Positions 1-58,185 are shown, counted from the first letter of the stretch. The stretch is 64,000 bases of DNA from Alphaproteobacteria bacterium (GCA_965232515.1 CBDDPY010000002.1:1024001-1088000); one strand, 5' to 3'. Program-made: numbers and translations. The notes: generated by a model from the sequence alone, not told the origin.

Positions 1-17
1 GGGTCGACGGCCCTGGG

Positions 18-3000
18 CTAGAACTCTTCCCACTCGTCGTCCGCCTCGGCGACCGACGCGGCAGCCGCGCCGCCGCCACCGCCACCGCCGACAGCAGCCA
101 CCTTGGTCGCAATCGTCTGCTGCTGCTGATGCACGGGGTTCGGCGCGGCGGCCGGCGCGGGGGCAGGGGCCGCGTCCAGGCCCAGCTCGTCCTCTTCGTC
201 ACCGGTCTTGAAGAAGCTCACCAGCTTCTTCAGATCGTCGACCTGCGCCGTCGTCGAGTGCAGCGCCGCCGTGGTCTCTTCCACCAGGGCCGCGTTCTGC
301 TGCGTCATCTCGTCCATGTTCGACACCGCCGTGCCGACCTCGTCCAGGCCGGACGCCTGTTCCTTGCTGGCCGCGGCGATGTCCGAGATGATGTCCGCCA
401 CCTTCTTCACCGAAGTGACGATCTCCTCCAGGGACGTGCCGGCCTTCTGCACCAGCCCGACGCCGTCGCGCACCTGGCTGTCCGAATTGCTGATCAGGTC
501 CTTGATCTCCTTCGAGGCCTTGCCCGAGCGTTGCGCCAGCGCACGGACCTCGGTGGCGACCACGGCGAAGCCTTTGCCGGCCTCGCCGGCGCGCGCCGCC
601 TCGACCGCCGCGTTCAGCGCCAAGAGGTTGGTCTGGAAGGCGATCTCGTCGATCATGCTCATGATCTCGGTGATCTGCTTCGACGAGTCCTCGATCTTGC
701 TCATGGCGTCCACCGCCGACGCCACGACCTCGCCGCCGTTCGACGCGGCATCCCGCGCCGCCACCGCCAGCTGATTGGCCTGCTGGGCGTTGTCGGCGTT
801 CTGGCGCACCGTCGCCGACAGCTCCTCCATCGAGGCCGCGGTCTCCTCCAGCGACGAGGCCTGCTGCTCGGTGCGCGACGACAGGTCGCCGGCGCCCGAT
901 GCGATCTCCGATGTGGCGTCGCTCACCGTGCCGGTGGCCGCGACGATCCGCTTGGCGATGCCGCCGATCTTCTCGGCCATCTGGTTCGAGTCACCCTTCA
1001 GCTTGGCGAAGGTGCCCTGGTAGTCGCCTTCGATACGCTGGGTCAGATCGCCCTGGGCCATCGCCGACATCACCGAGACCGTCTCGTTCAGGCCCCGGTC
1101 CACCGTGCCGACCAGCTGGTTCATGCCCTTGGCCAGCTCCAGCATGAAGCCCTGCTTGCCGGTCTCCTCCAGCCGCCGGCTGAAGTCGCCGGCGCCCGCC
1201 GCCGTCACCAGGTCCGCGACCTCGTCCTCGACCGCCAGCTGCGCCGTCACGTCGGTCCACTCGACCGAGGTCCCGGCCCGCTCGCCGCCCGGCCCGAACA
1301 CCGGCGTCACGATCAGGTCGAAGGTCAGGCCCGCGACCGAGACCCGGCCGTTATACGGTCCCTTCAGGCCGTCCAGCAGATTGCGCTGGTGCGACGGGTT
1401 CTTGTGGAACACGTCGATGTTGGTGCCGACCAGATTGTTCAGATCGAAGGCCGGCAGTTCCTGGCGGATGTCTGACTCGCGGCTGCGCATCAACTCGACC
1501 AGCGCCTTGTTGACGTAGACGATGTTGTAGTCGGCATCCGCGATCATGAAGTTCGTCGAGGCCGCGTCGAGCGTCGACTTGGCCCGCGCCATCTCTTCCT
1601 CGGTGACCAGCTTCTCGGTCACGTCCATCCACTGCACCGAGGTGGCGATGCGCTCGCCCTGGTCGTTGAAGGCCGGCGTCACCACCAGATCGAAGGTCAC
1701 GCCGCCGATCGTCAGACGGCCCTGATGCGGCTGCCGGAGGCCCGCCAGGATGCCGCGCTGATGCGCCGGGTTCTTGTGGAACACGTCGATGTTGGTGCCG
1801 ATCAGGTTCCTGGCATCGAGGTTCGGCAGGTCCTGCCGCATCTCCGCTTCGCGGCTCTCGAACAGCTCGTGCGCCGACCTGTTCATGTAGACGATGTTGT
1901 AATCGGCGTCCGCGATCATGAAGCTCGCAGACGCGTTGTCCAGCGCCGAGCGCGCCTGCGCCGCTTCTCTGCCGATTTCCCGGATCTTGTCGAGCGAACG
2001 GGCCAATTCGCCCAGCTCGTCCTTGTTGTCCATACCGGGCAGGACGACGTTCATGTCGCCGCCGGCCAACAGGCCGACGCCATCGGCGATGCTGGCGATC
2101 GGCCGGCTGATGCTTCGGGCGATCGTCCGCATCATCAGCATCAAGACCAACAAAACCAGACCGTAGCCGACCGCCATCGCCAGCAGCAGGTTTGTCGCGG
2201 CGCTCTGGTGGGAATCGGCCACATGCAGCAGGTCGGCGGCGACGCGGTCCTCCAACGCCTTCAGGACGTTGATTTTCTGCGTGATGGCATCGAACCAGAA
2301 ACCGCCTTGGATACCTTGCGTATCGCCGCTGTCGACGCTTGCGATCGCGATGTCGCGCAGCCGTTGAACTTCCTTCGCTTCCGGGCCGTTCAGCGCCGCG
2401 GTCAGCTGCTCGCCTTCGGCCGGTGTCGCAAACCGCACAAAGCTGTCGAAATAGGCCTGTTGTTGCGCGATCAGGCTGACAAAGCGCTGATAGACCGCCG
2501 GCTTGAATTGTCCGCCGCTGAAGCCGGCGGCGCCCATGGCGCGCTCGATGCCGGCGCGCTCCTTGCCTTGCAGCAGGCTGACATAGGCGTTGATCGTCGC
2601 CGTCACCTCCGGATCGGTGCTGAGCGCCGCCATCTCCTCGACGATGTCGAGCAGGCCTGCGATCGTTCCGGTGTAGTAGCCGGCCATCTGGGGCACCGAA
2701 ATCTGGAGACCGTCGATCTTGCCGCGCACGCCGGACAACTCGGCCAGGCGCGCGCTGGCTTTCCGGACCAAATCGGCGAAGTCCGGGCCAAATACAGCCG
2801 CGTCGAAGCCTTGCAGCGAAGCTTCGTATACCTCGCGCTTGCCGTTGGTTGCCTGCCGCTGGCCGCCGATGCGATCGGCGAACTTCTTGCCTTGGCTCGA
2901 CAGGAAACCCGCCGACATGCCGCGCTCTTTCTGCAGCTCATGCACGACCGCGCTGATCTCGGTGCCGAGATGCGCCAACGTCCCGATGCGGGTGGCTTCG

Positions 3001-3122
3001 TTCGACCGGTCCCAATTCTCGAAAACGGACTGGCCAACCAGGAACACCATCACGATGATCGGCAGCACCGCGGCCAGGGTCAGTCGCGTGGCGATCTTCA
3101 TATTGCTTATCAATGTCGTCAC
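18..3122 (-). CDS. Membrane-bound Aer2-like chemoreceptor (MCP1): NIT sensor, HAMP, 2x PAS-heme, HAMPs, methyl-accepting domain, C-terminal EWEEF
   Basis: Two TM segments flank NIT motifs ([31 protein letters not shown]). Two [12 protein letters not shown] PAS repeats; [27 protein letters not shown] hairpin tip. Confidence 0.92.
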
Positions 3123-3450
3123 AACGGCACCTTGAAATGCTTTTGTTTGCCCTGCCGCGCCGCGTCCTTGTCAATCAGACCGGGTGACGGCGAGCGTTTC
3201 GTATCGCTCGAATTCGAGCCCAAGGTGCCAATGCGATCTAAAAAATCTCTAAAAATCTCAAAATACCGGATTGTCTAATATTTATGGCCTGCAGGAGCAG
3301 TTTTGCGCCTGTAACAGGATCAGAAGTTTTCGTCGAAGTGTTCCGGCCGCGGACGAGCGCCGATCCAACAAAAAGGCTGCTTCACCAATAGCGGATGAAA
3401 ACATACGGCCACCGTCTGGCCCCTCCACAAGCGCCCCTCGGAAGATGGCG

Positions 3451-3481
3451 AAAACCCGGCCACAGAGACCTGTAGCCGGGC
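3451..3481 (-). terminator. Intrinsic terminator after MCP2
   Basis: Minus strand GCCCGGCTACAG-GTCT-CTGTGGCCGGGT followed by TTT, about 30 nt after the stop codon. Confidence 0.7.
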
Positions 3482-3509
3482 TTTGCTCAATCAAAGACGC
3501 CCGGCGGGA

Positions 3510-6302
3510 TCAGAACTCTTCCCAGTCGTCGTCGGCTGGTTCGGCGGCGGCCGCAGCCGCGCCGCCACCGCCGCCGACCGTGGCCACCTTGGTCTCCAGC
3601 TTTTTTTGCTGCCGGTGAACCGGATTGCCGCCGGCCGTCGCCAGGGCCGGGGCGGGGGCAGCATCGAGGTCCAACTCGCCCTCTTCCTCGCCGGTCTTGA
3701 AGAAGCGCACGAGCTTCTTCAGATCATCGGTCTGGCCGGTCATCGAATGCAGCGCCGCCGTGGTCTCCTCCACCAGGGCCGCGTTCTGCTGCGTCATCTC
3801 ATCCATGTTTGTCACCGCCGTACCGACCTCGTCGATCCCCGAGGCCTGCTCCTTGCTGGCCGCGGCAATATCCGAGATGATGTCCGCGACCTTCCTTACC
3901 GAGGTGACGATCTCTTCCAGGGACGTGCCGGCCTTCTGCACCAGCCCGACGCCGTCGCGGACCTGGCTGTCCGAGTTGCTGATCAGGTCCTTGATCTCTT
4001 TCGAGGCCCGGCCCGAGCGCTGCGCCAGGGCACGGACTTCCGTGGCGACAACGGCGAAGCCCTTGCCGGCCTCGCCGGCGCGCGCCGCCTCGACCGCCGC
4101 GTTCAAGGCCAAGAGGTTGGTCTGGAAGGCGATCTCGTCGATCATGCCCATGATCTCGGTGATCTGCTTGGACGAGTCCTCGATCTTGCCCATGGCGTCC
4201 ACCGCCGAGGCCACGACCTCGCCGCCGTTCGACGCCGCGTCGCGGGCGGCGACGGCAAGCTGATTGGCCTGCTGGGCGTTGTCGGCGTTCTGGCGCACCG
4301 TCGCCGACAGCTGCTCCATCGAAGCCGCGGTCTCTTCCAGCGACGAGGCCTGCTGCTCGGTGCGCGACGACAGGTCGCCGGCGCCGGCCGCGATCTCGGC
4401 GTTGGCATCGCTGACCGTACCCGTTGCCGCGACGATCCGCTTGGCGATGCCGCTGATCTTCTCGGCCATTTGGTTCGAGTCGTCCTTGAGCTTCAGGAAG
4501 GTGCCCCGATAGTCGCCTTCGATGCGCCGGGTCAGGTCGCCCTGGGCCATCGCCGACATCACCGACACCGTCTCGTTCAGACCGCGGTCGACGGTGGCGA
4601 CCAACTCGTTCATGCCCTTTGCCAGCTCCAGCATGAAGCCCTGCTTGCCGTCTTCGGCCAGCCGCCGGCTGAAGTCGCCGGCGCCCGCCGAGGCAACAAG
4701 GCCAGCCACTTCTTCCTCGACCGCCAGCTGCGCCGTTATGTCGGTCCACTCGACGGAGGTGCCGACACGCTCGCCATCCGCACCGAAAACCGGCGTCAGG
4801 ACAAGATCGAAGGTCAGGCCGGCGACGGCGATACGGCTACGGTGCGTCAAGCGCAACCCCTCCAGGATGCCGCGCTGGTGCGACGGGTTCTTGTGGAACA
4901 CATCGATGTTGGTGCCGATCAGGGTGTTCAGATCGAAGGCCGGCAACTCCTTGCGGATGTCGCTCTCCCGACTGCGGAACAGCTCGATCAGGGCCTTGTT
5001 CACATAGACGATGTTGTAGTCGGCATCCGAGATCATGAAGTTGGTCGAGGAGCTGTCCATCGTCGCCTTGGCGCGCGCCGCCTCGGTCTCGATCGCCAGC
5101 TTTTCGGTAATGTCCGTCCATTGCACCGCGGTACCGATGCGCGCGCCGGTCGGACTGAAGGCCGGCGTCATCACCAGATCGAAAGTCAGACCGGCAATCG
5201 CCAGCCGGCTCTCATGCGGCTGTCTGAGACCGTCCAGAATGCCGCGCTGATGTGACGGGTTCTTGTGGAATACGTCGATGCTGGTGCCGATCAGGTTCTT
5301 CGCGTCCAGATTCGGCAACTGTTGCCGCAGCTCGGCCTCGCGGCGCTCGAACAGCCGGCGGGCGGCGTCGTTCGTATAGACAATATTGTAGTCGGCGTCC
5401 GCCATCATGAAGCAGGCCGACGCGCCCTCGAGCGCCGACTGCGAGCGGGCGGCGACAACCGCGCTATCTCGGAAAGCCGACAGAGCGCCGGCCATCTGAC
5501 CGATTTCGTCACCCCGGCCCAGACCGGCAATGTCGAAGTCGAAGTTGCCCCGGTCCATCTCGGCGAAATTCTCGGTCACGGCACCGATCGGCCGGACCGT
5601 CGAGCGAACCATGACCAGACCGGCAATCGCGCCGACGCTGACCGCCACGACCGACACCACCAACAGCATGATCAGGCCAGCCTTTTCGTCTCGCTCGGCC
5701 TTCAACGCCGACGCCGCGGTGAATTCGGCCAGTTCCAGCAGCTGCTCCTCGAGCCGGTGGTTCAAGGCGTCTTCCTCGGCCTCGACCTCAAGGGCGGCCT
5801 CGATCGCCCGGGCGACCTCACCGGCCTCGAGCATGGCGATAACGGCAAGCGCGTGTTCGTCGAAGCGGTCGTGCGCGACCGCGATTTCCCGCAAAGTCGT
5901 CGTCACACGAGCGAATTCGGCCTTTGCCGCCGCGCTGTGCGCCAGCGATTGAACCTCGCTCGCCAACACAGAAGCCTCACGCAGTTCCTTGTCGACCTGG
6001 GCGGCCAGTTCCTCGAAACGGTGCTTTGATTCCTTGAAGTGGCCGATGGCGTTCTCGTTGACCTGCATCTCCTCGCCGAACCGCAACGACCGCTCGAGCG
6101 CGATCGACTGCTCGAGCTGGTGAAGAGAGATTTTCATCAAGGCATTGGTAAGTGGAATGTCGACCTCGGCGACTTCCTCCAGCTCCAATCCGATCTTCTG
6201 CATCTTTGCGGCGCCAATCGTGGCAATGATCACGCTGATCGCCAGCAGACCGCCGATCAAGCCATAGAACTTCGTTGAAATCCTCACGTTCGAGAGGCGC
6301 AT
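3510..6302 (-). CDS. Membrane-bound Aer2-like chemoreceptor (MCP2): helical four-helix-bundle-like sensor, HAMP, 2x PAS-heme, MA domain, DWEEF
   Basis: TM / helical periplasmic region / TM; two [12 protein letters not shown] domains; MCP signalling motif. Confidence 0.9.
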   Translation of the reverse strand: MRLSNVRISTKFYGLIGGLLAISVIIATIGAAKMQKIGLELEEVAEVDIPLTNALMKISLHQLEQSIALERSLRFGEEMQVNENAIGHFKESKHRFEELAAQVDKELREASVLASEVQSLAHSAAAKAEFARVTTTLREIAVAHDRFDEHALAVIAMLEAGEVARAIEAALEVEAEEDALNHRLEEQLLELAEFTAASALKAERDEKAGLIMLLVVSVVAVSVGAIAGLVMVRSTVRPIGAVTENFAEMDRGNFDFDIAGLGRGDEIGQMAGALSAFRDSAVVAARSQSALEGASACFMMADADYNIVYTNDAARRLFERREAELRQQLPNLDAKNLIGTSIDVFHKNPSHQRGILDGLRQPHESRLAIAGLTFDLVMTPAFSPTGARIGTAVQWTDITEKLAIETEAARAKATMDSSSTNFMISDADYNIVYVNKALIELFRSRESDIRKELPAFDLNTLIGTNIDVFHKNPSHQRGILEGLRLTHRSRIAVAGLTFDLVLTPVFGADGERVGTSVEWTDITAQLAVEEEVAGLVASAGAGDFSRRLAEDGKQGFMLELAKGMNELVATVDRGLNETVSVMSAMAQGDLTRRIEGDYRGTFLKLKDDSNQMAEKISGIAKRIVAATGTVSDANAEIAAGAGDLSSRTEQQASSLEETAASMEQLSATVRQNADNAQQANQLAVAARDAASNGGEVVASAVDAMGKIEDSSKQITEIMGMIDEIAFQTNLLALNAAVEAARAGEAGKGFAVVATEVRALAQRSGRASKEIKDLISNSDSQVRDGVGLVQKAGTSLEEIVTSVRKVADIISDIAAASKEQASGIDEVGTAVTNMDEMTQQNAALVEETTAALHSMTGQTDDLKKLVRFFKTGEEEGELDLDAAPAPALATAGGNPVHRQQKKLETKVATVGGGGGAAAAAAEPADDDWEEF

Positions 6303-6652
6303 GGCATAACCCCCATCAATTCGAATTGAATGTCAGAAATCTCGTTTCGACGCGACGCCGGAACCGGCTCGGCTTTCGTCCGGGCGCCGGTTCGGCGGCT
6401 GTTCGTTTCTGCGACGAGAGGGGCCGACAGACGGCCTGGCGCTTGCAATTGCCGCAGTCGGCAACGCGCTCTGAACTGTCTTCCAGTTCGACATACGGCT
6501 ATGGACCCCCAGCATCGCCGGCCGGAACTGTTATGGCGGAAAGTCCGCCCATTCCGGATTGCGAGAACAACGCTGGGATAGTCCGAAAGCGGTGAACATA
6601 CGCTTAATGTTGTTCTGTTGTGTGAAATATAGATGCAACTTGCGGGTGGATT

Positions 6653-6666
6653 TTGACTCAAATCAA
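6653..6666. promoter_or_regulatory. FNR/FixK-like box upstream of MCP2
   Basis: TTGACTCAAATCAA is one mismatch from TTGAT-N4-ATCAA and lies in the AT-rich part of the spacer. Confidence 0.45.
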
Positions 6667-7067
6667 ACGAGAAATACTTTATCAAGATACAATTTTACTT
6701 TGCTAGCAATCCCGCGACGCAATACTCGGATGACTCTTATCGAAGCCGAAACCGGCATGGCTCGCTCGGTCGGCTCTGCCATGAGAAAGCGGGGCGATCC
6801 CTTGACGACATGCCAACCCGGACGACGATCTTGCATCGATCGACAATCTGTTTTTGACGAACGATCAGTTTGTCAGCGTCGCATTGGACAAAGGTACGAT
6901 CGAACCATGCCATCGCCTTCAATTGGCCGATGCTGAAACACCAATCGGGTGCCAGCCCGAGATTGGGCGGTCTGCCGGAACGTGTCGTGAAGCCCCTACG
7001 GTCTCCTTTGGTTCGGCCGTCCGGTTAACTGGCCGCGCCCTTCGTTCTGAACGGCGCCTGAATAAGC

Positions 7068-9860
7068 CTAATACTCCTGCCAGTCGCCGTCGGCCGGTTC
7101 GATGACAGTTGCCGCGGGGGCAGCGCTGCCGCCGACGGCGGCCACCTTGGTTTCCAGCGTCTTTTGCTGTTGATGAACCGGATTGCCGTCGGGCGTCGGC
7201 AGGGTCGGGGCAGAGGCCGCGTCGAGATCCAGCTCGTCCTCTTCCTTGCCGGTCTTGAAGAAGCGCACCAGCGTCTTCAGATCGTCGATCTGGCCAGTCA
7301 TCGAGTGCAGCGCCGCCGTGGTCTCCTCCACCAGGGCCGCGTTCTGCTGCGTCATCTCGTCCATGTTCGACACCGCCGTGCCGACCTCGTCGATGCCCGA
7401 GGCCTGTTCCTTGCTGGCCGCGGCGATGTCCGAGATGATGTCCGCCACCTTCTTCACCGAGGTGACGATCTCTTCCAGGGACGTGCCGGCCTTCTGCACC
7501 AGACCGACGCCGTCGCGGACTTGGCTGTCCGAGTTGCCGATCAGCTCCTTGATCTCCTTCGAGGCCTTGCCCGAGCGCTGCGCCAGCGCCCGGACCTCGG
7601 TGGCGACAACGGCGAAGCCCTTGCCGGCTTCGCCGGCCCGCGCCGCCTCGACCGCCGCGTTCAAGGCCAAGAGGTTGGTCTGGAAGGCGATCTCGTCGAT
7701 CATGCCCATGATCTCGGTGATCTGCTTCGACGAGCTCTCGATCTTGCTCATGGCGTCCACCGCCGAGGCCACGACCTCGCCGCCGTTCGACGCCGCGTCG
7801 CGGGCCGCGACGGCAAGCTGGTTCGCCTGCTGAGCGTTGTCGGCGTTCTGGCGCACCGTGGCCGACAGCTCCTCCATCGAAGCCGCGGTCTCTTCCAGCG
7901 ACGAGGCCTGCTGCTCGGTGCGCGACGAGAGATCCCCGGCGCCCGACGCGATCTCCGACGTCGCGTCGCTGACCGTGCCGGTCGCGCCGACGATCCGCTT
8001 GGCGATGCCGCCGATCTTCTCGGCCATCTGGTTCGAGTCGTCCTTGAGCTTCAGGAAGGTGCCCCGATAGTCGCCTTCGATGCGCCGGGTCAGATCGCCC
8101 TGGGCCATGGCCGACATCACCGAGACCGTCTCGTTCAGGCCGCGGTCGACGGTGCCGACCAGCTCGTTCATGCCTTTCGCCAGCTCCAGCATGAAGCCCT
8201 GCTTGCCGGCTTCTTCCAGCCTAGTGCTGAAGTCGCCGGCGCCGGCCGCCTGCACCAGTTCAGCGATCTCGTGCTCAACCGCGAGCTGCGCCGTCACATC
8301 GGACCATTCCACCGAGGTGCCGACACGCTCGCCGCCCGGCCCGAACACCGGCGTCACTGTCAGGTCGAAAGTCAGGTCCGCGACCGTGATCCGGCCGTAA
8401 TGCGGCGCCGTCAGACCGTCCAACAGGTTGCGCTGATGTGACGGGTTCTTGTGGAACACGTCGATATCGGTGCCGACCAGGTTGTTCAGGTCGAACGCCG
8501 GCAACTCCTGACGAATCTCGCCCTCGCGGCCGCGGAACAACTCGACCAGCGCCTTGTTGATATAGACGATGTTGTAGTCGGCGTCCGCGATCATGAAATT
8601 GGTCGACGTGCCGTCTATGGTCGCCTTGGCCCGCGCCATCTCCTCTTCCGTCGCCAGCTTCTCGGTGATGTCGGTCCATTGAACCGAGGTGGCGATACGC
8701 TCGCCCTTGTCGTTGAAGGCCGGCGTCACGATCAGATCGAAGACCACGCCGCCGATCGTGAGGCGGCTTTCGTGCGGTTGCCGCAGCCCGTCCAGGATGC
8801 CGCGCTGATGCGCCGGGTTCTCGTGGAACATGTCGATGTTGGCGCCGATCAGGTTCCTGGCATCGAGGTTCGGCAGATCCTGCCGCATCTCCGCCTCGCG
8901 CGCCTCGAACAGTTCCTGGGCCGATTGGTTCACGTAGACGATGTTGAAATCGGCATCGGCAATCATGAAGTTCGCCGATGCATTGTCCAACGCCGACTGC
9001 GCCCGCGCGGCTACAGCGCCCGTCTCTTGTATCTCGACCAAAGCTCGCGCCAGGCCGCCAATTTCATCCGCACGGTCTGCCGCAGGTAGGTGCAGAGAAC
9101 TGACACCCGCTTTCACGTCTTGCACATAGGAAGCCATGCGCGACAGTGGCTGCGTGACAAGACGAGTCGCCGCACTCGACACGGCGACAAGAACGATGCC
9201 GGCAAACAGAATTGCAATCATGATGACGTTGGTCAGTTCCTGACCGGCCGCCAACTGACCATCAATGGCCGTTGAAACCTCAAGAATGCCGCGAACATCG
9301 CCAAGCCGCCAATCGGCCTTTGGTGTATCGGGGTGGGAATTGTGACAGTCAACGCAGCCCTGCAACTGCATACGGTCGGCAATCGCGACGCGGACCGTTT
9401 CCTTCCCATCGACCGTTTCACGGCGGACGAAAGTCGTGTCTGGATTGCTATTGAGGTATTCCCACGCCTGTTGCTGGAAATCGTCCAACCGGCGATCGGT
9501 ACGGTTAGGAAATGGATAGGCGCTGTAGAGATTTATTGTCGTGTCCCGCTCTCGCAACAATCGACTCAGATCATGAATGAACGTCGCCGGCAGGGGGATG
9601 GCGTTCGGATCCGCGGCGTGATTGATGCTGGGCTTCAGGGCACCGCTTTTCTTCGCTTTGACAATCACGTTTTTGGTGTAGTAGCCGCGAATGGTCTTGA
9701 ACTGATTGACAGTTTCCGTCGCTGACAACGCGGCGGCGTCGGTGGCATTCGACGCGATAATCCGCGGAATGAGCAACCCGGCCGAAATCACCAGAATCAA
9801 TAAGGCGATTGGAGTTGGAAGTATAAGTTTCCAAGCTAGACGTCGAGAAAGAAATTTCAT
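7068..9860 (-). CDS. Membrane-bound Aer2-like chemoreceptor (MCP3): DUF3365 c-type heme sensor, HAMP, 2x PAS-heme, MA domain, DWQEY
   Basis: Periplasmic IPLPATF...YSAYPFPNR...CVDCHNSHP...GDVRGILEV (CxxCH at 9342-9356). Start placed at ATG 9860 after a GGGGG RBS-like run. Confidence 0.9.
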   Translation of the reverse strand: MKFLSRRLAWKLILPTPIALLILVISAGLLIPRIIASNATDAAALSATETVNQFKTIRGYYTKNVIVKAKKSGALKPSINHAADPNAIPLPATFIHDLSRLLRERDTTINLYSAYPFPNRTDRRLDDFQQQAWEYLNSNPDTTFVRRETVDGKETVRVAIADRMQLQGCVDCHNSHPDTPKADWRLGDVRGILEVSTAIDGQLAAGQELTNVIMIAILFAGIVLVAVSSAATRLVTQPLSRMASYVQDVKAGVSSLHLPAADRADEIGGLARALVEIQETGAVAARAQSALDNASANFMIADADFNIVYVNQSAQELFEAREAEMRQDLPNLDARNLIGANIDMFHENPAHQRGILDGLRQPHESRLTIGGVVFDLIVTPAFNDKGERIATSVQWTDITEKLATEEEMARAKATIDGTSTNFMIADADYNIVYINKALVELFRGREGEIRQELPAFDLNNLVGTDIDVFHKNPSHQRNLLDGLTAPHYGRITVADLTFDLTVTPVFGPGGERVGTSVEWSDVTAQLAVEHEIAELVQAAGAGDFSTRLEEAGKQGFMLELAKGMNELVGTVDRGLNETVSVMSAMAQGDLTRRIEGDYRGTFLKLKDDSNQMAEKIGGIAKRIVGATGTVSDATSEIASGAGDLSSRTEQQASSLEETAASMEELSATVRQNADNAQQANQLAVAARDAASNGGEVVASAVDAMSKIESSSKQITEIMGMIDEIAFQTNLLALNAAVEAARAGEAGKGFAVVATEVRALAQRSGKASKEIKELIGNSDSQVRDGVGLVQKAGTSLEEIVTSVKKVADIISDIAAASKEQASGIDEVGTAVSNMDEMTQQNAALVEETTAALHSMTGQIDDLKTLVRFFKTGKEEDELDLDAASAPTLPTPDGNPVHQQQKTLETKVAAVGGSAAPAATVIEPADGDWQEY
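7894..8208. repeat. About 315-bp exact repeat shared by MCP3 and MCP4 (copy at 10923-11237)
   Basis: Base-by-base reading found no mismatch at offset 3029. It is part of roughly 2-kb near-identical 3' modules in all four MCP genes. Confidence 0.85.
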
Positions 9861-10037
9861 AATGAAGACCCCCATGATTTCAAAAAACATTAGATATTTT
9901 TAATAAATAAAATACTAAATTAGATGACTACTTTGCTTGCATTTGTACTCATCTGCACCATAGAACTATTTATGAGTGCAATTTCTCTGGATTAAACAAT
10001 TTTTGATAACACCTCCTCGAAAGTAGAGTTGTCAGAC

Positions 10038-10070
10038 AAAAGGGCCCGGCCGCATTGGCTGCAGCCGGGC
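10038..10070 (-). terminator. Intrinsic terminator after MCP4
   Basis: Minus strand GCCCGGCTGCA-GCCAA-TGCGGCCGGGC followed by CCTTTT. Confidence 0.7.
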
Positions 10071-10102
10071 ATATGGGCTCCCAAGGGATTGGAAGAGGGG
10101 GG

Positions 10103-13100
10103 CTAGAACTCTTCCCACTCGTCGTCGGCCTGCTCGGCGACCGCCGCCGCAGCCGCGCCGCCGCCACCGCCGACCGCGGCCACATTCTTCGCCAGCGTCT
10201 GCTGCTGCTGATGCACCGGATTGCCATCTGATCCAGGGTCAGGGGCAGTATCCGGCTCCAGCTCTTCCTCTTTCTCGCCGGTCTTGAAGAAGCGCACCAG
10301 CGTCTTCAGATCGTCGATCTGGCCGGTCATCGAGTGCAGCGCCGCCGTGGTCTCCTCCACCAGGGCCGCGTTCTGCTGCGTCATCTCGTCCATGTTCGAC
10401 ACCGCCGTGCCGACCTCGTCGATGCCCGAAGCCTGCTCCTTGCTGGCCGCGGCGATGTCCGAGATGATGTCCGCCACCTTCTTCACCGAGGTGACGATCT
10501 CCTCCAGTGACGCGCCGGCCTTCTGCACCAGCCCGACGCCGTCGCGCACCTGGCTGTCCGAGTTGCTGATCAGCTCCTTGATCTCCTTCGAGGCCTTGCC
10601 CGAACGCTGCGCCAGCGCCCGGACCTCGGTGGCGACAACGGCGAAGCCCTTGCCGGCTTCGCCGGCCCGCGCCGCCTCGACCGCCGCGTTCAGCGCCAGC
10701 AGGTTGGTCTGGAAGGCGATCTCGTCGATCATGCCCATGATCTCGGTGATCTGCTTCGACGAGCTCTCGATCTTGCTCATGGCGTCCACCGCCGAGGCCA
10801 CGACCTGACCGCCGTTCGACGCCGCGTCGCGGGCGGCGACAGCCAGCTGATTGGCCTGCTGGGCGTTGTCGGCGTTCTGACGCACCGTCGCCGACAGCTC
10901 CTCCATCGAGGCCGCGGTCTCCTCCAGCGACGAGGCCTGCTGCTCGGTGCGCGACGAGAGATCCCCGGCGCCCGACGCGATCTCCGACGTCGCGTCGCTG
11001 ACCGTGCCGGTCGCGCCGACGATCCGCTTGGCGATGCCGCCGATCTTCTCGGCCATCTGGTTCGAGTCGTCCTTGAGCTTCAGGAAGGTGCCCCGATAGT
11101 CGCCTTCGATGCGCCGGGTCAGATCGCCCTGGGCCATGGCCGACATCACCGAGACCGTCTCGTTCAGGCCGCGGTCGACGGTGCCGACCAGCTCGTTCAT
11201 GCCTTTCGCCAGCTCCAGCATGAAGCCCTGCTTGCCGTCTTCCGCCAGCCGCCGGCTGAAGTCGCCCGCGCCGGCCGCCTGTACCAGATCCGCGACCTCG
11301 TCCTCGACGGCCAGTTGCGCCGTTACGTCGGTCCACTGTACCGAGGTGCCGACCCGCTCGCCGTTCGGCCCGAACACCGGCGTCACGATCAAGTCGAAGG
11401 TCAGACCCGCGACTTCGACCCGGCCATTGTGCGGTGCTCGCAACCCATTCAGCAGGTTGCGCTGGTGCGACGGGTTCTTGTGGAACACGTCGATGTTGGT
11501 GCCGATCAGGTTGTTCAGATCGAAGGCCGGCAGCTCCCTGCGGATGTCGCCCTCGCGGCCGCGGAACAGCTCGACCAGCGCCTTGTTGACATAGACGATG
11601 TTGTAGTCGGCGTCCGCGATCATGAAGTTGGCCGACGCCGCATCCAAGGTCGACTTGGCCCGCGCCATCTCCTCCTCGGCCGCCAGCTTGTCGGTGATGT
11701 CGGTCCATTGAACCGAGGTGGCGATACGCTCGCCCTTGTCGTTGAAGGCCGGCGTTACCACCAGATCGAAGGTCACGCCGCCGATCTTCAAACGGCTCAC
11801 ATGCGGGTTGCTCAGGCCGGCCAGGATGCCACGCTGATGCGTCGGGTTCTTGTGGAAGTCGTCGATATTGCTGCCGATCAGGTTCCTGGCGTCGAGATTC
11901 GGCAGATCCTGCCGTAACTCCGCCTCACGGCTTTCGAACAGCTCTTGTGCCGCCTTGTTCATGTAGACGATATTGTAGTCGGCGTCGGCGATCATGAAGT
12001 TGGCCGAGGCCGCGCCCAAAGCCGATTGGGACCGAACCGCTCGAACGCTGGTCTCCTGCAGCGAGATCAACGCGGTCGTCATGGCGCCGATTTCGTCGGC
12101 GCGCTCGGCCGGCGGCACGTCGAACTGCGTATCGCCCTCGGCCAGCCGCGTCATCGCATCGGTCACGGCGTTGATCGGCCGGGTCATGCTTCGCGCAAAC
12201 CACGCGCCGATACAGCCGATCACGACGACGATAGCGGTCGCGACCGCGACCAGGTAAATCAGCAGGTGATTCACCGGCGCCAGCACTTCGGCCTCATCGA
12301 TCTCGGCCATGATGGCCCAGGTCGTGCCGAGGAACTCCAGAGCGCCGTAGGCCGACAGGACGGGAATACCGCGGTAGTCCGGCGTCACCATCACGCCACT
12401 CTCGCCGTCCAAAGCCCGGCGCACCGTCTCGGTGTCGACCTCCACCTTAAGGATGGTCGATTCCTGGGCGAACCGGGAATCGCTTCGCATCAGCCGATCG
12501 CCGCCGACGATATAGGTCTCGCCGCTCTCGCCCATGCCGGCGGCGGTCTGCATCACCTTGTTCAGTCGGTCGATCGGCATCTGGAACACCAGCACGCCCC
12601 GCAGCCGGCCGTCCGCATCCAGGATCGACGACGAAATGAAGCTGGCGGCCGCGCCATGGCTCGGCGCATAGGGTTTGAAGTCAAAGAACTGGTGGCTGTC
12701 GCGTTTCGCCGCATCCCGGGCCGCGCGAAACGCGTTGCCCAGATCGGTTTCCCGCCATTTGCCGGTGTTCACATTGGTCGCGTAGTCCAGCTCCTTGAAG
12801 ACCGTGTAGACCAGGTTGCCGTCGGTATCGAACAGAAAGATGTCGTAGTAGCCCCGTTCGCGCAGAAACGTGCGCAGCCAGGGATGGTATTCGGCGTGCA
12901 CGGCGCTGTAGCGCGAGCCGTCCTCGGCATCGTCGAGGTTTTCCTTCTGGCCCGTCGGATGCGGATTATCGTCGATATAGGCCTTTTGCAGATACGCCGT
13001 CGGCGCCGGCAGCTGGCGCCAAGCCTCTGAAAACGCCTCGAGCGCGGTCAACGCCGTCGGGTTGCTCGACATCGTCCGAAGGTCCTGTCGGATCGATTCG

Positions 13101-13291
13101 AGATAACGCTCCAGATCGTCCTTTTTGGTCGCTTCGAGAGCCGCCAGTTTCTCCGACGCCGCCGCCAACAGGCTTTCCGACGACGTGGTGAAACTGACCA
13201 GTGAGGCAATTGCCGTCGACGCGAACGCCAGCAGCACCATGGTTGTCGTCAGCTTGGCCGCGATCTTGATGTCACGTATCGCGCTGAACAT
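10103..13291 (-). CDS. Membrane-bound Aer2-like chemoreceptor (MCP4): dCache sensor, HAMP, 2x PAS-heme, MA domain, EWEEF
   Basis: dCache motifs (GYYDIFLFDTDGNLVYTVFKELDYAT, DFKPYAPS, GMGESGETYIVG, DYRGIPVLSAY). ATG 13291 is preceded by GGAGG. Confidence 0.92.
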   Translation of the reverse strand: MFSAIRDIKIAAKLTTTMVLLAFASTAIASLVSFTTSSESLLAAASEKLAALEATKKDDLERYLESIRQDLRTMSSNPTALTALEAFSEAWRQLPAPTAYLQKAYIDDNPHPTGQKENLDDAEDGSRYSAVHAEYHPWLRTFLRERGYYDIFLFDTDGNLVYTVFKELDYATNVNTGKWRETDLGNAFRAARDAAKRDSHQFFDFKPYAPSHGAAASFISSSILDADGRLRGVLVFQMPIDRLNKVMQTAAGMGESGETYIVGGDRLMRSDSRFAQESTILKVEVDTETVRRALDGESGVMVTPDYRGIPVLSAYGALEFLGTTWAIMAEIDEAEVLAPVNHLLIYLVAVATAIVVVIGCIGAWFARSMTRPINAVTDAMTRLAEGDTQFDVPPAERADEIGAMTTALISLQETSVRAVRSQSALGAASANFMIADADYNIVYMNKAAQELFESREAELRQDLPNLDARNLIGSNIDDFHKNPTHQRGILAGLSNPHVSRLKIGGVTFDLVVTPAFNDKGERIATSVQWTDITDKLAAEEEMARAKSTLDAASANFMIADADYNIVYVNKALVELFRGREGDIRRELPAFDLNNLIGTNIDVFHKNPSHQRNLLNGLRAPHNGRVEVAGLTFDLIVTPVFGPNGERVGTSVQWTDVTAQLAVEDEVADLVQAAGAGDFSRRLAEDGKQGFMLELAKGMNELVGTVDRGLNETVSVMSAMAQGDLTRRIEGDYRGTFLKLKDDSNQMAEKIGGIAKRIVGATGTVSDATSEIASGAGDLSSRTEQQASSLEETAASMEELSATVRQNADNAQQANQLAVAARDAASNGGQVVASAVDAMSKIESSSKQITEIMGMIDEIAFQTNLLALNAAVEAARAGEAGKGFAVVATEVRALAQRSGKASKEIKELISNSDSQVRDGVGLVQKAGASLEEIVTSVKKVADIISDIAAASKEQASGIDEVGTAVSNMDEMTQQNAALVEETTAALHSMTGQIDDLKTLVRFFKTGEKEEELEPDTAPDPGSDGNPVHQQQQTLAKNVAAVGGGGGAAAAAVAEQADDEWEEF

Positions 13292-13619
13292 CCGTTGTTC
13301 CTCCAATCCTTCGCCTTGCCGCTCATGGTCGAGCCGGCAACCCCATCGGCGTCGTACCGGTGGTGATTTCAGTTATTGAGAATGTTGCGCGCCATCAGGC
13401 CGCATATGAGTGAAATTAATATTAAATTCTTCTAATTTAGAATCTTCTGCGGTAATCGCGCGAACCGGGCCCGCAAACGCCGGCAAAACGGTGACGGAAA
13501 CGCGGATATTTCGACAGAAATCGAAATATCCGAAAATGGCCATTTTCTGCGGAATCTTAAGCCTTGACGCCCCTGTGCATGGGGTTGTTCCCGCGTTTCC
13601 CGGGCGCGATACCCCCCCT

Positions 13620-15242
13620 TCAACCGCCCTTGATAAGGTCGGCGGCCTTCTCGGCGATCATGATCACGGCGGCATTGGTGTTGGCCGAAACCAGCGTCGG
13701 CATAACAGACGCGTCGACCACCCGCAGGCCGTCGAGGCCGTGCACGCGCAGCCGGTCGTCGACCACGGCCAGGGGGTCGCGGCCCATCTTGCAGGTGCCG
13801 ACGGCGTGGTAGACGGTCGAACCGTTGCGGCGGGCATAGTCCAGCCAGTCGGCGTCGCTCTGCACCTCGTCGCCCGGCAGGATCTCGGCCACCCGGTAGC
13901 CGTCGAATGCGGGCGCCTGGCAGAACCGGCGGGCGAGCTTCAGGCCAGCGACCATGGTCTCGCGATCGGACGGGACGCTCAGATAGCCCGGCCGGATCGC
14001 CGGCGGTGTCGCCGGGTCGGCCGACACGATCGTGACGCTGCCGCGGCTGTCCGGCCGGTGCAGCCAGCAGCCGCAGGACATGCCGGGGAAGGGGTCGAGG
14101 CCGCCGGCGATCCCGCCCTCGAAGCTCGCCGGCATGAAGACGTATTGCAGGTCCGGGCTCTCGAGCTCGGGCCGCGAGCGTACCGAGGCGCCGACATGGG
14201 CGACGCTGAGCGCCAGCAGGCCGCGTCGGAAAACCGCGTATTTCGCCAGCTCGCCGAGGAACCGCAGGCCGCGGCTGCGCTCGTTCAGCGTCACCACGTT
14301 CCGCAGCCGGTAGGAGACCCGGGCGACGTAGTGATCCTGGAAGTTGCTGCCGACGCCCGCCAATGCGTGCCGGACCGGGATGCCCAGGTCGGCCAGCAGA
14401 TCCGGCGAACCGATGCCCGAGAGCTGCAGGAGCTGCGGCGAGTTCACCGCGCCGCCCGCGACGATGACTTCGCGGCCGGCCCGGGCGCGCAGGCTGCGGC
14501 CAGCCGCCTGGTAGACGACGCCGGTCGCCCGCCGCCCGTCGAGCGTGATCCGGGTCGTCAGCGCCCGGGTGACGACGCGCAGGTTGGCGCGCCGGCGCGC
14601 GGGCTTCAGGAATGCGGTCGCCGTGCTGCTGCGCCGGCCGTTCGCCATGCATTGCTGGAAGTAACCGACGCCGGCCTGATCGGCGCCGTTATAGTCAGGG
14701 TTCCGCGGCACGCCATGATGCTCAGCCGCGGCGATGAAAGCGTCGCTGATCGCATGCCGCTCGCGGATGTCGGCGACCTGCAGCGGCCCGCCCGCGCCAT
14801 GGAAGGCGTCGCCGCCGCCCTCGCGGTTCTCCGATTTCTTGAAGTAGGGCAGGACCTCGTCATACGACCAGCCGCGGTTGCCGAGCTGTGCCCAGTGGTC
14901 GAAGTCCTGCCGCTGGCCACGCACGTAAAGGTGGCCGTTGATCGAGCTGGAGCCGCCCAGCACCTTGCCGCGCGGAAAGTGGATGGCGCGGTTGCCCGAT
15001 TCGGGTTCCGGTTCGGTGGCGTAGCACCAGTTCACGCGGGCGTCGTCCAGTGTCTTGGTGAAGCCGGCCGGGATGTGAATGAACGGATTGCGGTCCGGAC
15101 CGCCGGCTTCCAACAGCAGCACCGTCGTCTCCGGATCTTCGCTCAACCGGTTGGCCAGCACGCATCCGGCGGAGCCGGCGCCGACGATAATGTAGTCGTA
15201 GGTCTCGGCGGCCGGAACGCCGCCGTTGGTATCCGCTGCCAT
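13620..15242 (-). CDS. GMC family oxidoreductase (choline/alcohol dehydrogenase-like)
   Basis: [45 protein letters not shown]...NTNA. Confidence 0.92.
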
Positions 15243-15304
15243 GTGCCTATCCTAGCGCCTCCCACACTCGCGACGCGCGCGCGCAATTGCTATTCTCCGG
15301 CGCC

Positions 15305-15727
15305 ATGGCAAGACAACCGAATTCGACGATCAGGCACCGCCAACGGCCGGTGCTGCTGGTCCGCGACAGCGCCGGCGCCCGCCTGTCCGCGGCCCGCGGG
15401 CTCGCCCGCCGACAAGGCCGGCCGCTGCATCGCGTCGATCTGTCCGCCGCCGGCGACAGCGGCGAGACCGAGAGGATGCTCGATCGCGCCTTCAAGGCGG
15501 CGGCCAATCGGTCGGCGGTGCTGTTCTTCGACGAAGCCGACGCGCTGTTCGGCAAGCGCACCGAGGTGCGCGACTCCCACGACCGCTACGCCAACCTTGA
15601 AGTCGGCTATCTGCTGCAACGGCTCGAGGCCCATCGTGGCATCGTCATCATCGGCGCCAACCGCCGCCAGCACATCGACGACGCGCTGCTGAAACGCTGC
15701 CGCGCAAGCCTGAGGCACGCGGGATGA
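15305..15727 (+). CDS. Small stand-alone AAA+-like domain with degenerate Walker A (possibly a remnant)
   Basis: VLFFDEADALFGKRTEVRDSHDRYANLEVGYLLQRLE and IDDALLKR are intact; the P-loop position reads RDSAGARLS. Confidence 0.65.
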   Translation: MARQPNSTIRHRQRPVLLVRDSAGARLSAARGLARRQGRPLHRVDLSAAGDSGETERMLDRAFKAAANRSAVLFFDEADALFGKRTEVRDSHDRYANLEVGYLLQRLEAHRGIVIIGANRRQHIDDALLKRCRASLRHAG

Positions 15728-15972
15728 GCGATTTCGTGCTGGTCTGGGTGCTGTCCTCGATCGCCATTCTGGTCGCGATCTACCTCATCCGGTCGATACG
15801 CTTCCGCCGCCCGGCGCGGGCATCAGAGATGCATCTGCGCGGCACGCTGGTGTTCTGCGCCGTGTTCGGCGCCATTCCGGCCTTCCTTTACGACACCCAG
15901 TCGCCGCCGCCTGTGGACCTGCCCGAAACGCTGCAGAGCCGGCCGGCGCTGCCGGAAACGACCGGCAACTGA
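15724..15972 (+). CDS. Small two-TM hypothetical membrane protein
   Basis: ATGA overlap with the upstream ORF; two hydrophobic segments and a Pro-rich tail. Confidence 0.6.
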   Translation: MSDFVLVWVLSSIAILVAIYLIRSIRFRRPARASEMHLRGTLVFCAVFGAIPAFLYDTQSPPPVDLPETLQSRPALPETTGN

Positions 15973-16000
15973 CGGTCGCCGATCTCCGCCAGCCGGCGTC

Positions 16001-31507: not shown

Positions 31508-31950
31508 CGGCTGCCAGTCTCGACGCGGCGGTGGCCGCCTACGAGGTCTACTTCGCCGGTCTGACGCCCGAGACGGTGGCCGATCTGCGCGATCTCGCCG
31601 CGGCCGACATGCGGTTCCGCGATCCCTTCAACGACGTACAAGGCGTCGAAAAGGTCATCCGCCTGCTGCTGATGTCGTTCGAGGACACCGAGGGCATGCG
31701 GTTCGAATTCATCGACCGGGCGGTCTCGGACCACGTCTGCTATTACCGCTGGCGTTGTCTGTTCACGCCGAAACGCATGCCGAAGTCCGGCATCTGGACC
31801 TTCGACGGCATGAGCGAGGTGGCGTTCGATCCGCAAGGGCGGGTGGTCTCCCACATCGACCACTGGGATGCGTCAACCCAGTTCTATGCCCGGCTGCCGG
31901 TCGTCGGCAGCCTGATCCGCCTGGTGCGCCGCCGCCTCGCTGTCGACTAA
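31504..31950 (+). CDS. SnoaL-like / NTF2-fold protein
   Basis: GTGA overlap with the SDR; FRDPFNDVQG, GMSEV, HIDHWD. Confidence 0.85.
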   Translation: MTAASLDAAVAAYEVYFAGLTPETVADLRDLAAADMRFRDPFNDVQGVEKVIRLLLMSFEDTEGMRFEFIDRAVSDHVCYYRWRCLFTPKRMPKSGIWTFDGMSEVAFDPQGRVVSHIDHWDASTQFYARLPVVGSLIRLVRRRLAVD

Positions 31951-34572: not shown

Positions 34573-34574
34573 CT

Positions 34575-35405: not shown

Positions 35406-35411
35406 TGTCGT

Positions 35412-36749: not shown

Positions 36750-36752
36750 GAG

Positions 36753-38210: not shown

Positions 38211-38312
38211 GTTTTCCGTTCTCTGCCACGCAAAGAATGAGCGCAAACCACGTCCGGAGACGCCAAGCGAACCGCCGTGTTCCAGCGGTTCGCTTTGTTA
38301 CAAACTACGCTC

Positions 38313-54300: not shown

Positions 54301-54302
54301 GC

Positions 54303-55190: not shown

Positions 55191-55201
55191 GACCGGACTG
55201 T

Positions 55202-58147: not shown

Positions 58148-58185
58148 TAGCCGTATCGATCTGGCTACGCCGCCGCCCGGCAGCC

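Follow-up and report, generated by a model that had tools for sequence, protein, structure and literature searches.

The leftmost 13.3 kb of a 64,000-nucleotide stretch of DNA from an Alphaproteobacteria bacterium (GCA_965232515.1, CBDDPY010000002.1:1024001-1088000; hereafter the window, at its full length) is filled by four minus-strand open reading frames (ORFs) encoding chemoreceptors, as revealed by an ORF scan and the translations. These genes, termed A to D from left to right (Table 1), exhibit the same order of parts in 4/4 cases: a transmembrane (TM) segment, a sensor, a second TM segment, a HAMP domain, two PAS domains, a di-HAMP unit, a 36H signalling domain and a C-terminal pentapeptide. 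The sensors, of 160-300 amino acids (aa), are flanked by one hydrophobic segment on each side in 4/4 genes according to Pfam and a hydropathy scan, which located these segments near residues 8 and 307 in gene A and near residues 17 and 216 in gene C. The Pfam entries of the cytoplasmic part follow an identical order in the four genes (HAMP, PAS, PAS, HAMP_2 for the di-HAMP, and MCPsignal, the last at E ~1e-52), and their third-position GC (0.80-0.89) is as in the other genes of this 64% GC window. An earlier sequence-only reading had described four tandem genes of one shared architecture at this place; the Pfam domain search and the hydropathy scan bore this out, and the observation of the four-receptor array is confirmed in every particular. 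Regarding gene starts, the database form of gene A comprises 1027 aa and begins at 3101, gene C has an alternative possible start at an ATG at 9860, and the database form of gene D comprises 1062 aa with a likely start at 13291, in agreement with the start that the same reading had given to the last gene.

Table 1. Window positions of the four receptor genes and associated features; domain names and cellular locations are predictions, and PAS-heme is a name that presupposes heme binding.
Feature	Position	Strand	Details
Gene A	18..3122	-	NIT-sensor Aer2-type receptor, ORF 1034 aa
A, NIT domain, periplasmic, residues 58-298	2229..2951	-	Pfam NIT E 3e-66; NasR 4akk E 1e-27
A, PAS-heme 1 and PAS-heme 2, residues 392-626	1245..1949	-	heme His codons 1776-1778, 1404-1406
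A, di-HAMP and 36H kinase-control (MA) module	201..1244	-	Pfam HAMP_2, MCPsignal
A, C-terminal pentapeptide EWEEF	21..35	-	x-[HFYW]-xx-[HFYW] motif of PMC7184735
Gene B	3510..6302	-	putatively 4HB-like-sensor Aer2-type receptor, 930 aa
B, helical sensor, periplasmic, about residues 30-205, putatively 4HB/TarH-like	5688..6215	-	Pfam TarH below cut-off; ESM Atlas neighbours
B, PAS-heme 1 and 2, residues 289-523	4734..5438	-	
B, pentapeptide DWEEF	3513..3527	-	
Gene C	7068..9890	-	sCache_heme-sensor Aer2-type receptor, 940 aa
C, Tll0287-like/sCache_heme domain, periplasmic	9273..9749	-	Pfam PF11845, residues 48-206, E 2e-14
C, CVDCH motif, residue 179	9342-9356	-	
C, PAS-heme 1 (FHENP) and PAS-heme 2 (FHKNP), residues 299-533	8292..8996	-	
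C, pentapeptide DWQEY	7071..7085	-	
C, 315-nt identical tract, di-HAMP/start of MA	7894..8208	-	perfect match to gene D tract
Gene D	10103..13306	-	dCache-sensor Aer2-type receptor, ORF 1067 aa
D, dCache_1 domain, periplasmic	12287..13171	-	Pfam 48.9 bits vs cut-off 45, E 8e-13
D, PAS-heme 1 and 2, residues 428-662	11321..12025	-	
D, pentapeptide EWEEF	10106..10120	-	
D, 315-nt identical tract, partner of gene C tract	10923..11237	-	
Terminator-like hairpin, just after gene D stop	10044..10070	-	11 pairs, 9 G-C

A shared cassette joined to unlike sensor modules

From a few residues before the first PAS domain (PAS1) to the C-terminus, the four proteins share a chassis, or cassette, of 641-644 aa with 83-88% protein identity and 84-89% DNA identity, whereas the sensor-TM-HAMP1 parts ahead of it (HAMP1 being the HAMP domain before PAS1) are 16-24% identical in an alignment that is forced. 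This contrast between a near-identical chassis and dissimilar N-terminal parts is far beyond chance and upholds the claim of the sequence-only reading that the four sensors are unrelated.

Comparison with known structures placed the cassette close to Aer2 receptors. PAS1 of gene C matched the PAS structures of Pseudomonas aeruginosa Aer2 (PaAer2; 3vol, E 9e-39; 4hi4, E 2e-36), its second PAS domain (PAS2) matched the PAS structure of a Vibrio cholerae chemoreceptor (6ceq, E 1.5e-19), and PAS2 together with the di-HAMP (residues 417-626) aligned to residues 20-229 of 3vol with E 1.6e-66. Matches to the PaAer2 PAS-heme domain were obtained for 8/8 PAS domains, with E between 1e-36 and 1e-39. The Aer2 core arrangement, PAS then di-HAMP, is present, with Pfam HAMP_2 directly after PAS2 in 4/4 genes. 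The motifs FH(K/E)NPxHQR, FDLxxTP(A/V)F and V(Q/E)WxD(V/I)T are kept in 8/8 PAS domains of the window, and with them all four features of the pocket: the His for heme, the Leu for signalling, the Trp for O2 stabilisation, and DxT. The earlier proposals that FH(K/E)NP, FDL and V(Q/E)WxD are retained by all eight domains, and that they correspond to the His, Leu and Trp of the PaAer2 PAS domain, both held upon alignment to 3vol and 4hi4, with the qualification that PaAer2 itself has FSL, not FDL. Counted along the alignment, the His of FHKNP corresponds to H234 of PaAer2, and by the same count the F(S/D)L leucine and the VQW tryptophan coincide with L264 and W283. H234 is the heme ligand of PaAer2 (PMC13401364); in the terms of Stuffle et al. 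the three residues are the E-eta His, H-beta Leu and I-beta Trp, of which the E-eta His coordinates b-type heme in Aer2 receptors (Stuffle et al. 2022), and the roles of the I-beta Trp (O2 stabilisation), H-beta Leu and C-terminal DxT have been described (PMC10107281). Heme binding and a response to O2 may be expected of the eight domains on the strength of this conservation.

The remainder of the cassette is likewise of Aer2 type. Residues 585-888 of gene C align gap-free to residues 222-525 of E. coli Tsr (304 residues), which assigns the signalling domain to the 36H class, and Q/E/E/E are found at the Tsr methylation-site positions, residues 297, 304, 311 and 493. The C-terminal tails, EWEEF, DWEEF, DWQEY and EWEEF, fit in 4/4 cases the tether motif x-[HFYW]-xx-[HFYW], regarded by Ortega et al. 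as a fundamental feature of Aer2-like receptors (PMC7184735). For all four genes, the best NCBIfam model was 'aerotaxis transducer Aer2' (Vibrio, NF041847), with E from 1e-185 to 1e-192.

The sensors point in different directions. That of gene A aligns to the NIT domain of NasR. For the sensor of gene B the closest ESM Atlas clusters were 4HB_MCP_1/HAMP (score 0.97), a lead toward a 4HB-like domain. The sensor of gene C matched PF11845 with 54.7 bits (cut-off 24.1), and its CxxCH motif was invariant in 47/47 aligned homologues. An AlphaFold2 (AF2) model built on this 47-row alignment reached a predicted local distance difference test (pLDDT) score of 89.6, single-sequence AlphaFold having given 43.7, and Foldseek searches with the model returned, among many Cache domains, the Geobacter heme-c sensor GSU0935 (3b42) and Tll0287 (5b82), each with probability 1.00. 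From the profile match and the model, this sensor is predicted to be an extracytoplasmic sCache_heme (DUF3365/Tll0287) domain with a Cache-type fold. The DUF3365/Tll0287 family was reclassified as sCache_heme in a 2026 preprint, in which a TM- and HAMP-linked member is reported to bind nitric oxide (NO), with slow dissociation, and to form no stable O2 complex (PMC12889525). The dCache module of gene D was matched by 4276 library representatives at E<=1e-30, and the nearest relatives of its sensor are dCache-containing methyl-accepting chemotaxis proteins (MCPs). Sequence searches of the PDB with the sensors of B, C and D returned no match or chance matches only.

We also examined where the similarity to other receptors ends. 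Residues 13-291 of gene C are 53% identical to a 583-aa sCache_heme-HAMP-MCP, the signalling domains of the pair being 34% identical, and PAS1 begins at residue 299. Gene A behaves similarly (residues 5-395, 46% identical to a 690-aa NIT MCP; signalling domains, 30%; PAS1 from 392), as does gene D (residues 12-425, 52% identical to a 730-aa dCache MCP; signalling domains, 31%; PAS1 from 428). PAS entries of Pfam occurred in 0/119 non-self best matches to the N-terminal module of gene C, and among the 119 non-self best matches to that of gene A they were confined to one histidine kinase and to P0243, a paralogue introduced below. For gene D we scanned 25 of the 33 best-ranked representatives, those matching in several stretches or short ones being set aside (P0364, P0373, P0374, P0378, P0382, P0385, P0390 and P0393); 22 of the 25 were MCPs lacking a PAS match at E<=1e-8, one of these (P0383) having an unassigned gap of 150 aa that could hide a PAS domain, and the other three were a histidine kinase, a GGDEF protein and a PAS-only protein. 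Since the N-terminal modules resemble PAS-less MCPs whose MA domains are only 30-34% alike, the genes are, by these alignments, chimeras with their seam between HAMP1 and PAS1. Where relatives of the modules are named, they belong to the Alphaproteobacteria (Pelagibius, Hyphomicrobiaceae, Nitratireductor, Rhodospirillaceae and Denitrobaculum). The HAMP1 segments of gene A and of the three paralogues described below (P0077, P0087 and P0243) are 41-60% alike and those of B, C and D are not; similarity in only this one subset indicates that grafting took place at more than one point.

Further paralogues and exchange of sequence within the family

At least three more paralogues lie outside the window on the same 7,332,416-bp contig: P0077 (933 aa, 4HB/TarH sensor) and P0087 (1030 aa, HBM sensor), both found with the PAS-PAS region of gene D, and P0243 (1059 aa), found with the NIT module of gene A and carrying a second NIT sensor, 66% identical to that of A. 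They share the cassette and the pentapeptide with the window genes, and the heme-pocket motifs are retained in their 6 PAS domains as judged by regular expression or by eye. The search with the gene D PAS-PAS region listed 120 proteins, gene B itself not being among them. The membrane-bound Aer2 family of this genome therefore counts at least seven members, and the stop codon of gene A lies so near the left edge of the window (17 nt) that the tandem array may continue leftward. Hence, of the four-member array put forward by the sequence-only reading, the four tandem genes are real, but the family is larger.

The chassis of the window paralogues differ pairwise at 222-314 of 1938 nt, with synonymous divergence (dS) of 0.27-0.44 and dN/dS of 0.16-0.22. 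Such dS values show that the cassettes are not fresh copies, and the dN/dS ratios bespeak purifying selection across both PAS domains. At four-fold sites, identity is 0.57-0.88 in the cassette versus 0.15-0.5 in the HAMP1 region, where one pair reaches 0.88 on only 8 sites. Genes C and D, which differ overall at 222 of 1938 nt of cassette, share a perfectly identical tract of 315 nt covering the di-HAMP and the start of the MA domain; given the divergence of this pair, simple arithmetic puts the chance of such a tract at ~1e-14 or less, which points to gene conversion.

Identities across the family are mosaic. The cassettes of A and P0077 are 96-100% identical and their sensors are unrelated. 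P0087 and L001, the latter from an Alphaproteobacteria metagenome-assembled genome (MAG), both carry an HBM sensor and their PAS domains are 81-89% identical, while PAS2 is 95% identical to that of A in L001 and 81% in P0087, the PAS2 of P0087 being 86-91% identical to those of B and P0110. P0110 has the sensor type of B, Pfam naming no sensor in P0110, with PAS domains 86-88% identical; the recurrence of this sensor type in P0110 implies that the B lineage is older than that species split. The closest relatives of the cassette were found in Alphaproteobacteria MAGs (L001, 85%; L008, 69%; L066, 64%), the other loci not exceeding 49%; together with the named relatives of the modules, these point to an alphaproteobacterial source.

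Distribution and comparison with known receptors

The occurrence of membrane-bound receptors of this kind was surveyed in 79 related loci, which stem from the 80 best among 552 or more confirmed matches and are biased towards the query. A hidden Markov model built from six of the eight PAS domains of the window detected 86 PAS-heme-type ORFs in these loci: 19 (in 17 loci) have a TM-periplasmic-TM arrangement with at least 100 aa between the segments, 28 have two close N-terminal hydrophobic segments, seven have one such segment and 32 have none. The close pairs, which in Pseudoalteromonas, for instance, lie near residues 12 and 42, belong to proteins that would be called 'soluble', and their spacing suggests a membrane hairpin anchor lacking a periplasmic domain. 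The TM forms span Alpha-, Beta- and Gammaproteobacteria and carry CHASE3 (Shewanella), TarH/4HB (Betaproteobacteria), HBM, NIT (Glaciecola) or globin plus 4HB (Undibacterium) as sensors, several others having no Pfam match; among the 120 listed relatives of the cassette, 11 hold an extracytoplasmic-sensor Pfam entry, five of these 11 being from the source contig. Two TM-periplasmic forms occur only in L009 (a Gynuella MAG, in adjacent genes) and in L045, and no locus among the 79 has more than two such forms or more than three PAS-heme ORFs. The view that Aer2 is normally soluble, from which the sequence-only reading had started, therefore stands for the characterised receptors but not for the 19/86 ORFs in 17/79 loci with TM-periplasmic-TM organisation. 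Likewise, the architecture is not unique (17/79 loci), although no locus matches the array in number of TM forms.

Two further combinations of sensors were encountered among the relatives. Betaproteobacterial MCPs of Undibacterium and uncultured MAGs place a globin domain ahead of the PAS-heme domains (L054, 8765-12265; L074, 8765-11872; L002, 580-3432; L004, 9074-11911), in the order globin, TM, 4HB, TM, HAMP and PAS-heme domains in L054 and L074, by which two different heme-based gas sensors would be united in one receptor. In addition, 16/120 best relatives of the gene A NIT module (residues 1-383) are NIT-HAMP-MCP receptors with a C-terminal hemerythrin (PF01814), an arrangement in which the NIT sensor is recurrently paired with a second and possibly O2-related domain, and several other relatives of this module carry PilZ.

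In 5/5 related loci scanned for their context (L009, L010, L039, L073 and L045), the TM di-PAS-heme receptor lies within or adjoins a che cluster. The full order CheY-CheA-CheW-(receptor)-CheR-CheD-CheB is seen in L009, L010 and L039; L073 ends inside the receptor and has only CheY-CheA-CheW upstream, and the ORFs submitted for L045 did not include CheR, CheD or CheB. This is the order described for Aer2-containing Che2/F7-type clusters (PMC7184735). A response-regulator-SpoIIE phosphatase accompanies the cluster in L009, L039 and L073, with an Hpt protein in L009 and L039 and a STAS protein in L010, and the clusters of L009 and L039 directly follow the flagellar genes FliG, FliH, FliI and FliJ. 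The betaproteobacterial MAG locus L045 (9194-19507) contains four consecutive MCP genes beside CheA, whose products are a di-PAS-heme receptor with a TarH sensor, an MCP with multiple PAS domains, a receptor of 691 aa that has a single PAS-heme domain, and a PaAer2-like TM receptor with HAMP_N3 and McpB_HAMP_2; some Xanthomonadales F7 clusters are also described as holding multiple Aer2-like copies (Ortega et al., PMC7184735). By this survey, PAS-heme receptors that are membrane-bound and possess periplasmic sensors occur widely in Che2/F7-like clusters; the notion of a soluble Aer2 has to be revised accordingly, and the finding is relevant to the evolution of Tar-like receptors.

Among characterised systems, VcAer2 resembles the window genes in having two consecutive PAS-heme domains followed by di-HAMP and the 36H signalling domain, in line with the Vibrio Aer2 model being best for A to D and with the match of 6ceq to PAS2. 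In VcAer2, PAS1 modulates PAS2; it differs from A to D in that no TM-sensor-TM-HAMP module is recognised in it (PMC7184735) and in that A to D score about half of the Vibrio equivalog cut-off. PaAer2/McpB (3vol, 4hi4) has in common with them the pocket of His, Leu, Trp and DxT, the in-line connection of PAS to di-HAMP, the 36H domain and the pentapeptide tether; in contrast, it has one PAS domain preceded by three cytoplasmic HAMPs, is predicted to be cytosolic, is located in the Che2 cluster and shows FSL in place of FDL. The gammaproteobacterial Aer2-like receptors, too, are described as having no periplasmic domains (Ortega et al. 2020, PMC7184735), a description from which A to D depart with a periplasmic sensor in 4/4 genes, LiAer2 being a published exception. 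LiAer2 is membrane-embedded, with what Stuffle et al. termed a 'periplasmic ligand-binding domain' before its PAS-heme domains and Aer2 core; among characterised receptors, it alone has been proposed to integrate the signals of a small molecule and O2. It differs in its three PAS domains, in its hexacoordinate deoxy-heme, in its inverted response in E. coli and in being described as a single receptor, with no family of swapped sensors known to us.

The input modules have their own counterparts. The gene C module (CxxCH Cache domain, TM and HAMP) is 49-56% identical to many MCPs of ~583 aa, but 0/119 of its best relatives have a PAS domain and gene C adds two PAS-heme domains, so that it could, as predicted, hold three hemes per chain. 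NIT-HAMP-MCP-hemerythrin receptors, for example that of a Rhodospirillaceae bacterium MAG, also join NIT to a possible O2/iron-binding domain, but in these the second sensor is a C-terminal hemerythrin and not a PAS-heme in the signal path. Tar-like 36H receptors share the 36H domain, the periplasmic sensor between two TM helices and the HAMP; those of later-stage F7 systems were proposed by Ortega et al. 2020 to have arisen from Aer2-like receptors by a domain swap. They have lost the PAS-HAMP repeats, whereas A to D keep them, by which the latter look like a hybrid state of the proposed Aer2-to-Tar-like transition.

Within the open-access literature, searched by titles and the starts of abstracts, we found no description of an array of membrane-bound Aer2 paralogues, nor of a receptor joining PAS-heme with sCache_heme or with NIT; supplementary domain tables of PMC7184735 and PMC12889525 may already list TM Aer2-like or sCache_heme-PAS architectures. 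The statement of the sequence-only reading that it knew of no described four-member array of this kind is in keeping with this result and with the maximum of two TM forms in the 79 loci. The Aer2 kind and its membrane-bound variant (LiAer2) are already known; what appears new is a multi-member family with one cassette and swapped sensors, with defined chimeric junctions, ongoing gene conversion and a potential three-heme receptor. How a single receptor integrates two inputs is an open question, which for Aer2 has been raised only with regard to the periplasmic domain of LiAer2. The present family offers a ready-made comparative set, in which one near-invariant output cassette is coupled to four sensors in the window and to six or more different ones over the seven or more paralogues of the genome; any difference in behaviour could then be traced to the input module by itself. 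For the engineering of chimeric receptors, the junctions supply precise fusion points of natural origin, and as a series of natural chimeras the family could reveal how an external chemical signal and internal oxygen are processed together in bacteria. In gene C, a likely periplasmic heme-c NO sensor would be paired with two cytoplasmic heme-b O2 sensors.

Proposed function and genomic setting

We propose that complete input modules of ordinary MCPs (TM1, periplasmic sensor, TM2 and HAMP1) were grafted onto one cytoplasmic cassette, which would comprise PAS-heme 1, PAS-heme 2, the di-HAMP, the 36H kinase-control module with its methylation sites, a flexible tail and the pentapeptide tethering CheR/CheB. 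Duplication would have given rise to at least seven paralogues, four of them in tandem in the window, and recombination and gene conversion in the shared part would hold the cassettes near-identical and the sensors distinct. Signalling may proceed in line: occupancy by a periplasmic ligand would move TM2 together with HAMP1, the latter being placed immediately before PAS1; PAS1 would modulate PAS2, as in VcAer2 and VvAer2; and the output would be a joint function of the outside cue and cytoplasmic O2 (or another gas ligand of heme). Because HAMP1, through which a transmembrane sensor ordinarily passes on its signal, is fused to the N-terminus of PAS1, a periplasmic signal must cross both heme domains to reach the kinase-control tip, and joint processing of ligand and O2 is the most economical reading of this in-line geometry. 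In published Aer2 receptors, the last PAS-heme domain acts through DxT on the di-HAMP and the kinase-control module, an upstream PAS domain being a modulator (PMC13401364, PMC10107281), and joint small-molecule and O2 processing was also suggested for LiAer2 (Stuffle et al.). That A to D are intact, selectively maintained membrane-bound Aer2 receptors, with sensors grafted onto one cassette and a joint output for an outside cue and O2, is a reading that we hold to be moderately probable.

Regarding the cues, the sensor families suggest nitrate or nitrite as candidates for the NIT sensor and, by analogy with the characterised sCache_heme protein, NO for that of gene C. The presence of NIT and sCache_heme sensors beside O2-type PAS domains, along with the NIT-hemerythrin relatives, suggests a link between nitrogen-oxide and O2 sensing, and such a panel would suit a choice between O2 and alternative respiratory substrates. 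Gating of the ligand signals by O2, which the sequence-only reading had proposed as an 'O2-gated chemosensory panel', is plausible on the domain order described above.

Several observations weigh against this reading. VvAer2 and LiAer2 signal with only the last PAS domain and the di-HAMP (PMC10107281), which means that N-terminal parts can be dispensable and that periplasmic input might couple weakly, and the inverted O2 response of LiAer2 in E. coli (PMC13401364) implies that the sign of any gating is not predictable. For P. aeruginosa PA4520, the NIT domain failed to bind either nitrate or nitrite (PMC6381276); a NIT domain alone is consequently no proof of nitrate sensing. The sensor of gene B gave a weak TarH match only (E 7e-5; 23.2 bits vs a cut-off of 25.2), and the NF041847 scores of 616-642 bits, against an equivalog cut-off of 1200, make A to D relatives of Vibrio Aer2 rather than equivalogs. 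Furthermore, no che, flagellar or denitrification genes were detected in the 44 other ORFs scanned at 13.6-63.7 kb of the window.

Other explanations of the array were considered alongside. A very recent duplication, or an assembly error producing a collapsed or chimeric repeat, would render it functionally meaningless, and the closest public relatives (L001, L008, L066 and P0110) do reside on contigs of 3.9-5.7 kb, as if repeats had broken their assemblies. This is exceedingly improbable in view of the 222-314 nt by which the cassettes differ, their dS of 0.27-0.44 with dN/dS near 0.2, the individual intact ORF and non-alignable upstream region of each gene, the hairpins after B, C and D, and the recurrence of the sensor type of B in P0110 (PAS 86-88%) and of the HBM sensor of P0087 in L001 (PAS 81-89%). 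More serious is the idea that what the PAS-heme pair senses is not O2 but NO, carbon monoxide (CO) or the redox state of the heme, or that the pair is chiefly a scaffold for dimerisation and a spacer making the receptor longer, the periplasmic sensor then being the sole physiological input. The PAS-heme domain of PaAer2 also binds CO and NO, and the NIT and sCache_heme sensors themselves point to nitrogen-oxide chemistry. PAS domains can moreover be scaffolds or localisation determinants (PMC10107281). We nevertheless deem this unlikely, as the O2-stabilising I-beta Trp is present with His, Leu and DxT in 8/8 domains, the nine Aer2 PAS domains studied to date all bind O2, and do so with comparable affinity (Stuffle et al.), and purifying selection extends across both PAS domains.

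The receptors could also be inputs to a Che2/F7-type pathway controlling something other than swimming, for instance stress or sigma-factor control via an RsbU-like phosphatase, in which case 'chemotaxis panel' would be the wrong name. The location of the receptor in or beside a che cluster in 5/5 scanned loci, the response-regulator-SpoIIE phosphatase in L009, L039 and L073, the Hpt protein in L009 and L039 and the STAS protein in L010 are compatible with it, as is a gene order equal to that of Aer2-containing clusters, the function of stage 1-2 F7 systems being unclear according to Ortega et al. (PMC7184735). Conversely, the window genes lie outside any such cluster, at least on the visible side (on the left the view ends at window base 1), many bacteria also employ pentapeptide-bearing 36H receptors in flagellar control (PMC7184735), and the clusters of L009 and L039 directly follow flagellar genes, so we treat this explanation as a tentative possibility.

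Beyond the preferred reading of joint-output receptors, a bolder version would regard the single di-PAS-heme cassette as a recombination-competent universal adaptor into which complete sensor-TM-HAMP modules were plugged at least five to seven times, with gene conversion holding the cassette uniform, yielding a set of two-input receptors; we find it conceivable and rather doubtful. If true, O2 would be combined with nitrate/nitrite-type, NO-type (in a three-heme receptor), dCache, 4HB and HBM cues, a facultative respirer would weigh each outside cue by its internal O2 state, and in these receptors the Aer2-to-Tar-like hybrid state that Ortega et al. postulated for the evolution of E. coli-type chemotaxis would survive to this day.

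In the intergenic regions of the array, weaker hairpins than that after gene D follow gene C (6945-6960) and gene B (3407-3421); the hairpin scan as a whole returned 15 sites vs 10.2 +/- 3.7 in shuffles. An alignable common motif was not found in the four upstream regions, and together with the hairpins after D, C and B this suggests separate transcription units. A box resembling that of FNR/Anr, TTGACTCAAATCAA (6653-6666, one mismatch to the consensus, within the 765 bp of intergenic DNA upstream of B), was rejected as being at chance level, since 51/100 shuffles had at least one match, and a sigma-70 scan produced only in-gene matches at equivalent cassette positions, likewise taken as chance. 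No Rfam family was detected in bases 1-16000.

Elsewhere in the window, a minus-strand run of five genes (31947-38246) encodes a photolyase, a flavin amine oxidoreductase, a DUF1365 protein, a cyclopropane-fatty-acid-synthase-like methyltransferase and an MFS_2 transporter. Another minus-strand region (51373-58842) contains a 1051-aa fused oxidoreductase (2Fe-2S, Pyr_redox_2, BFD-like and DAO domains) whose neighbours are a DHDPS-family enzyme, the TRAP transporter components DctM and DctP and a GntR/FCD regulator, and looks like a catabolic island for an amino-acid-derived compound. Nearer to the array, a plus-strand ORF of 146 aa (15287-15727) with a partial AAA ATPase match, maybe a gene fragment, adjoins a GMC oxidoreductase gene (13620-15242, minus strand).

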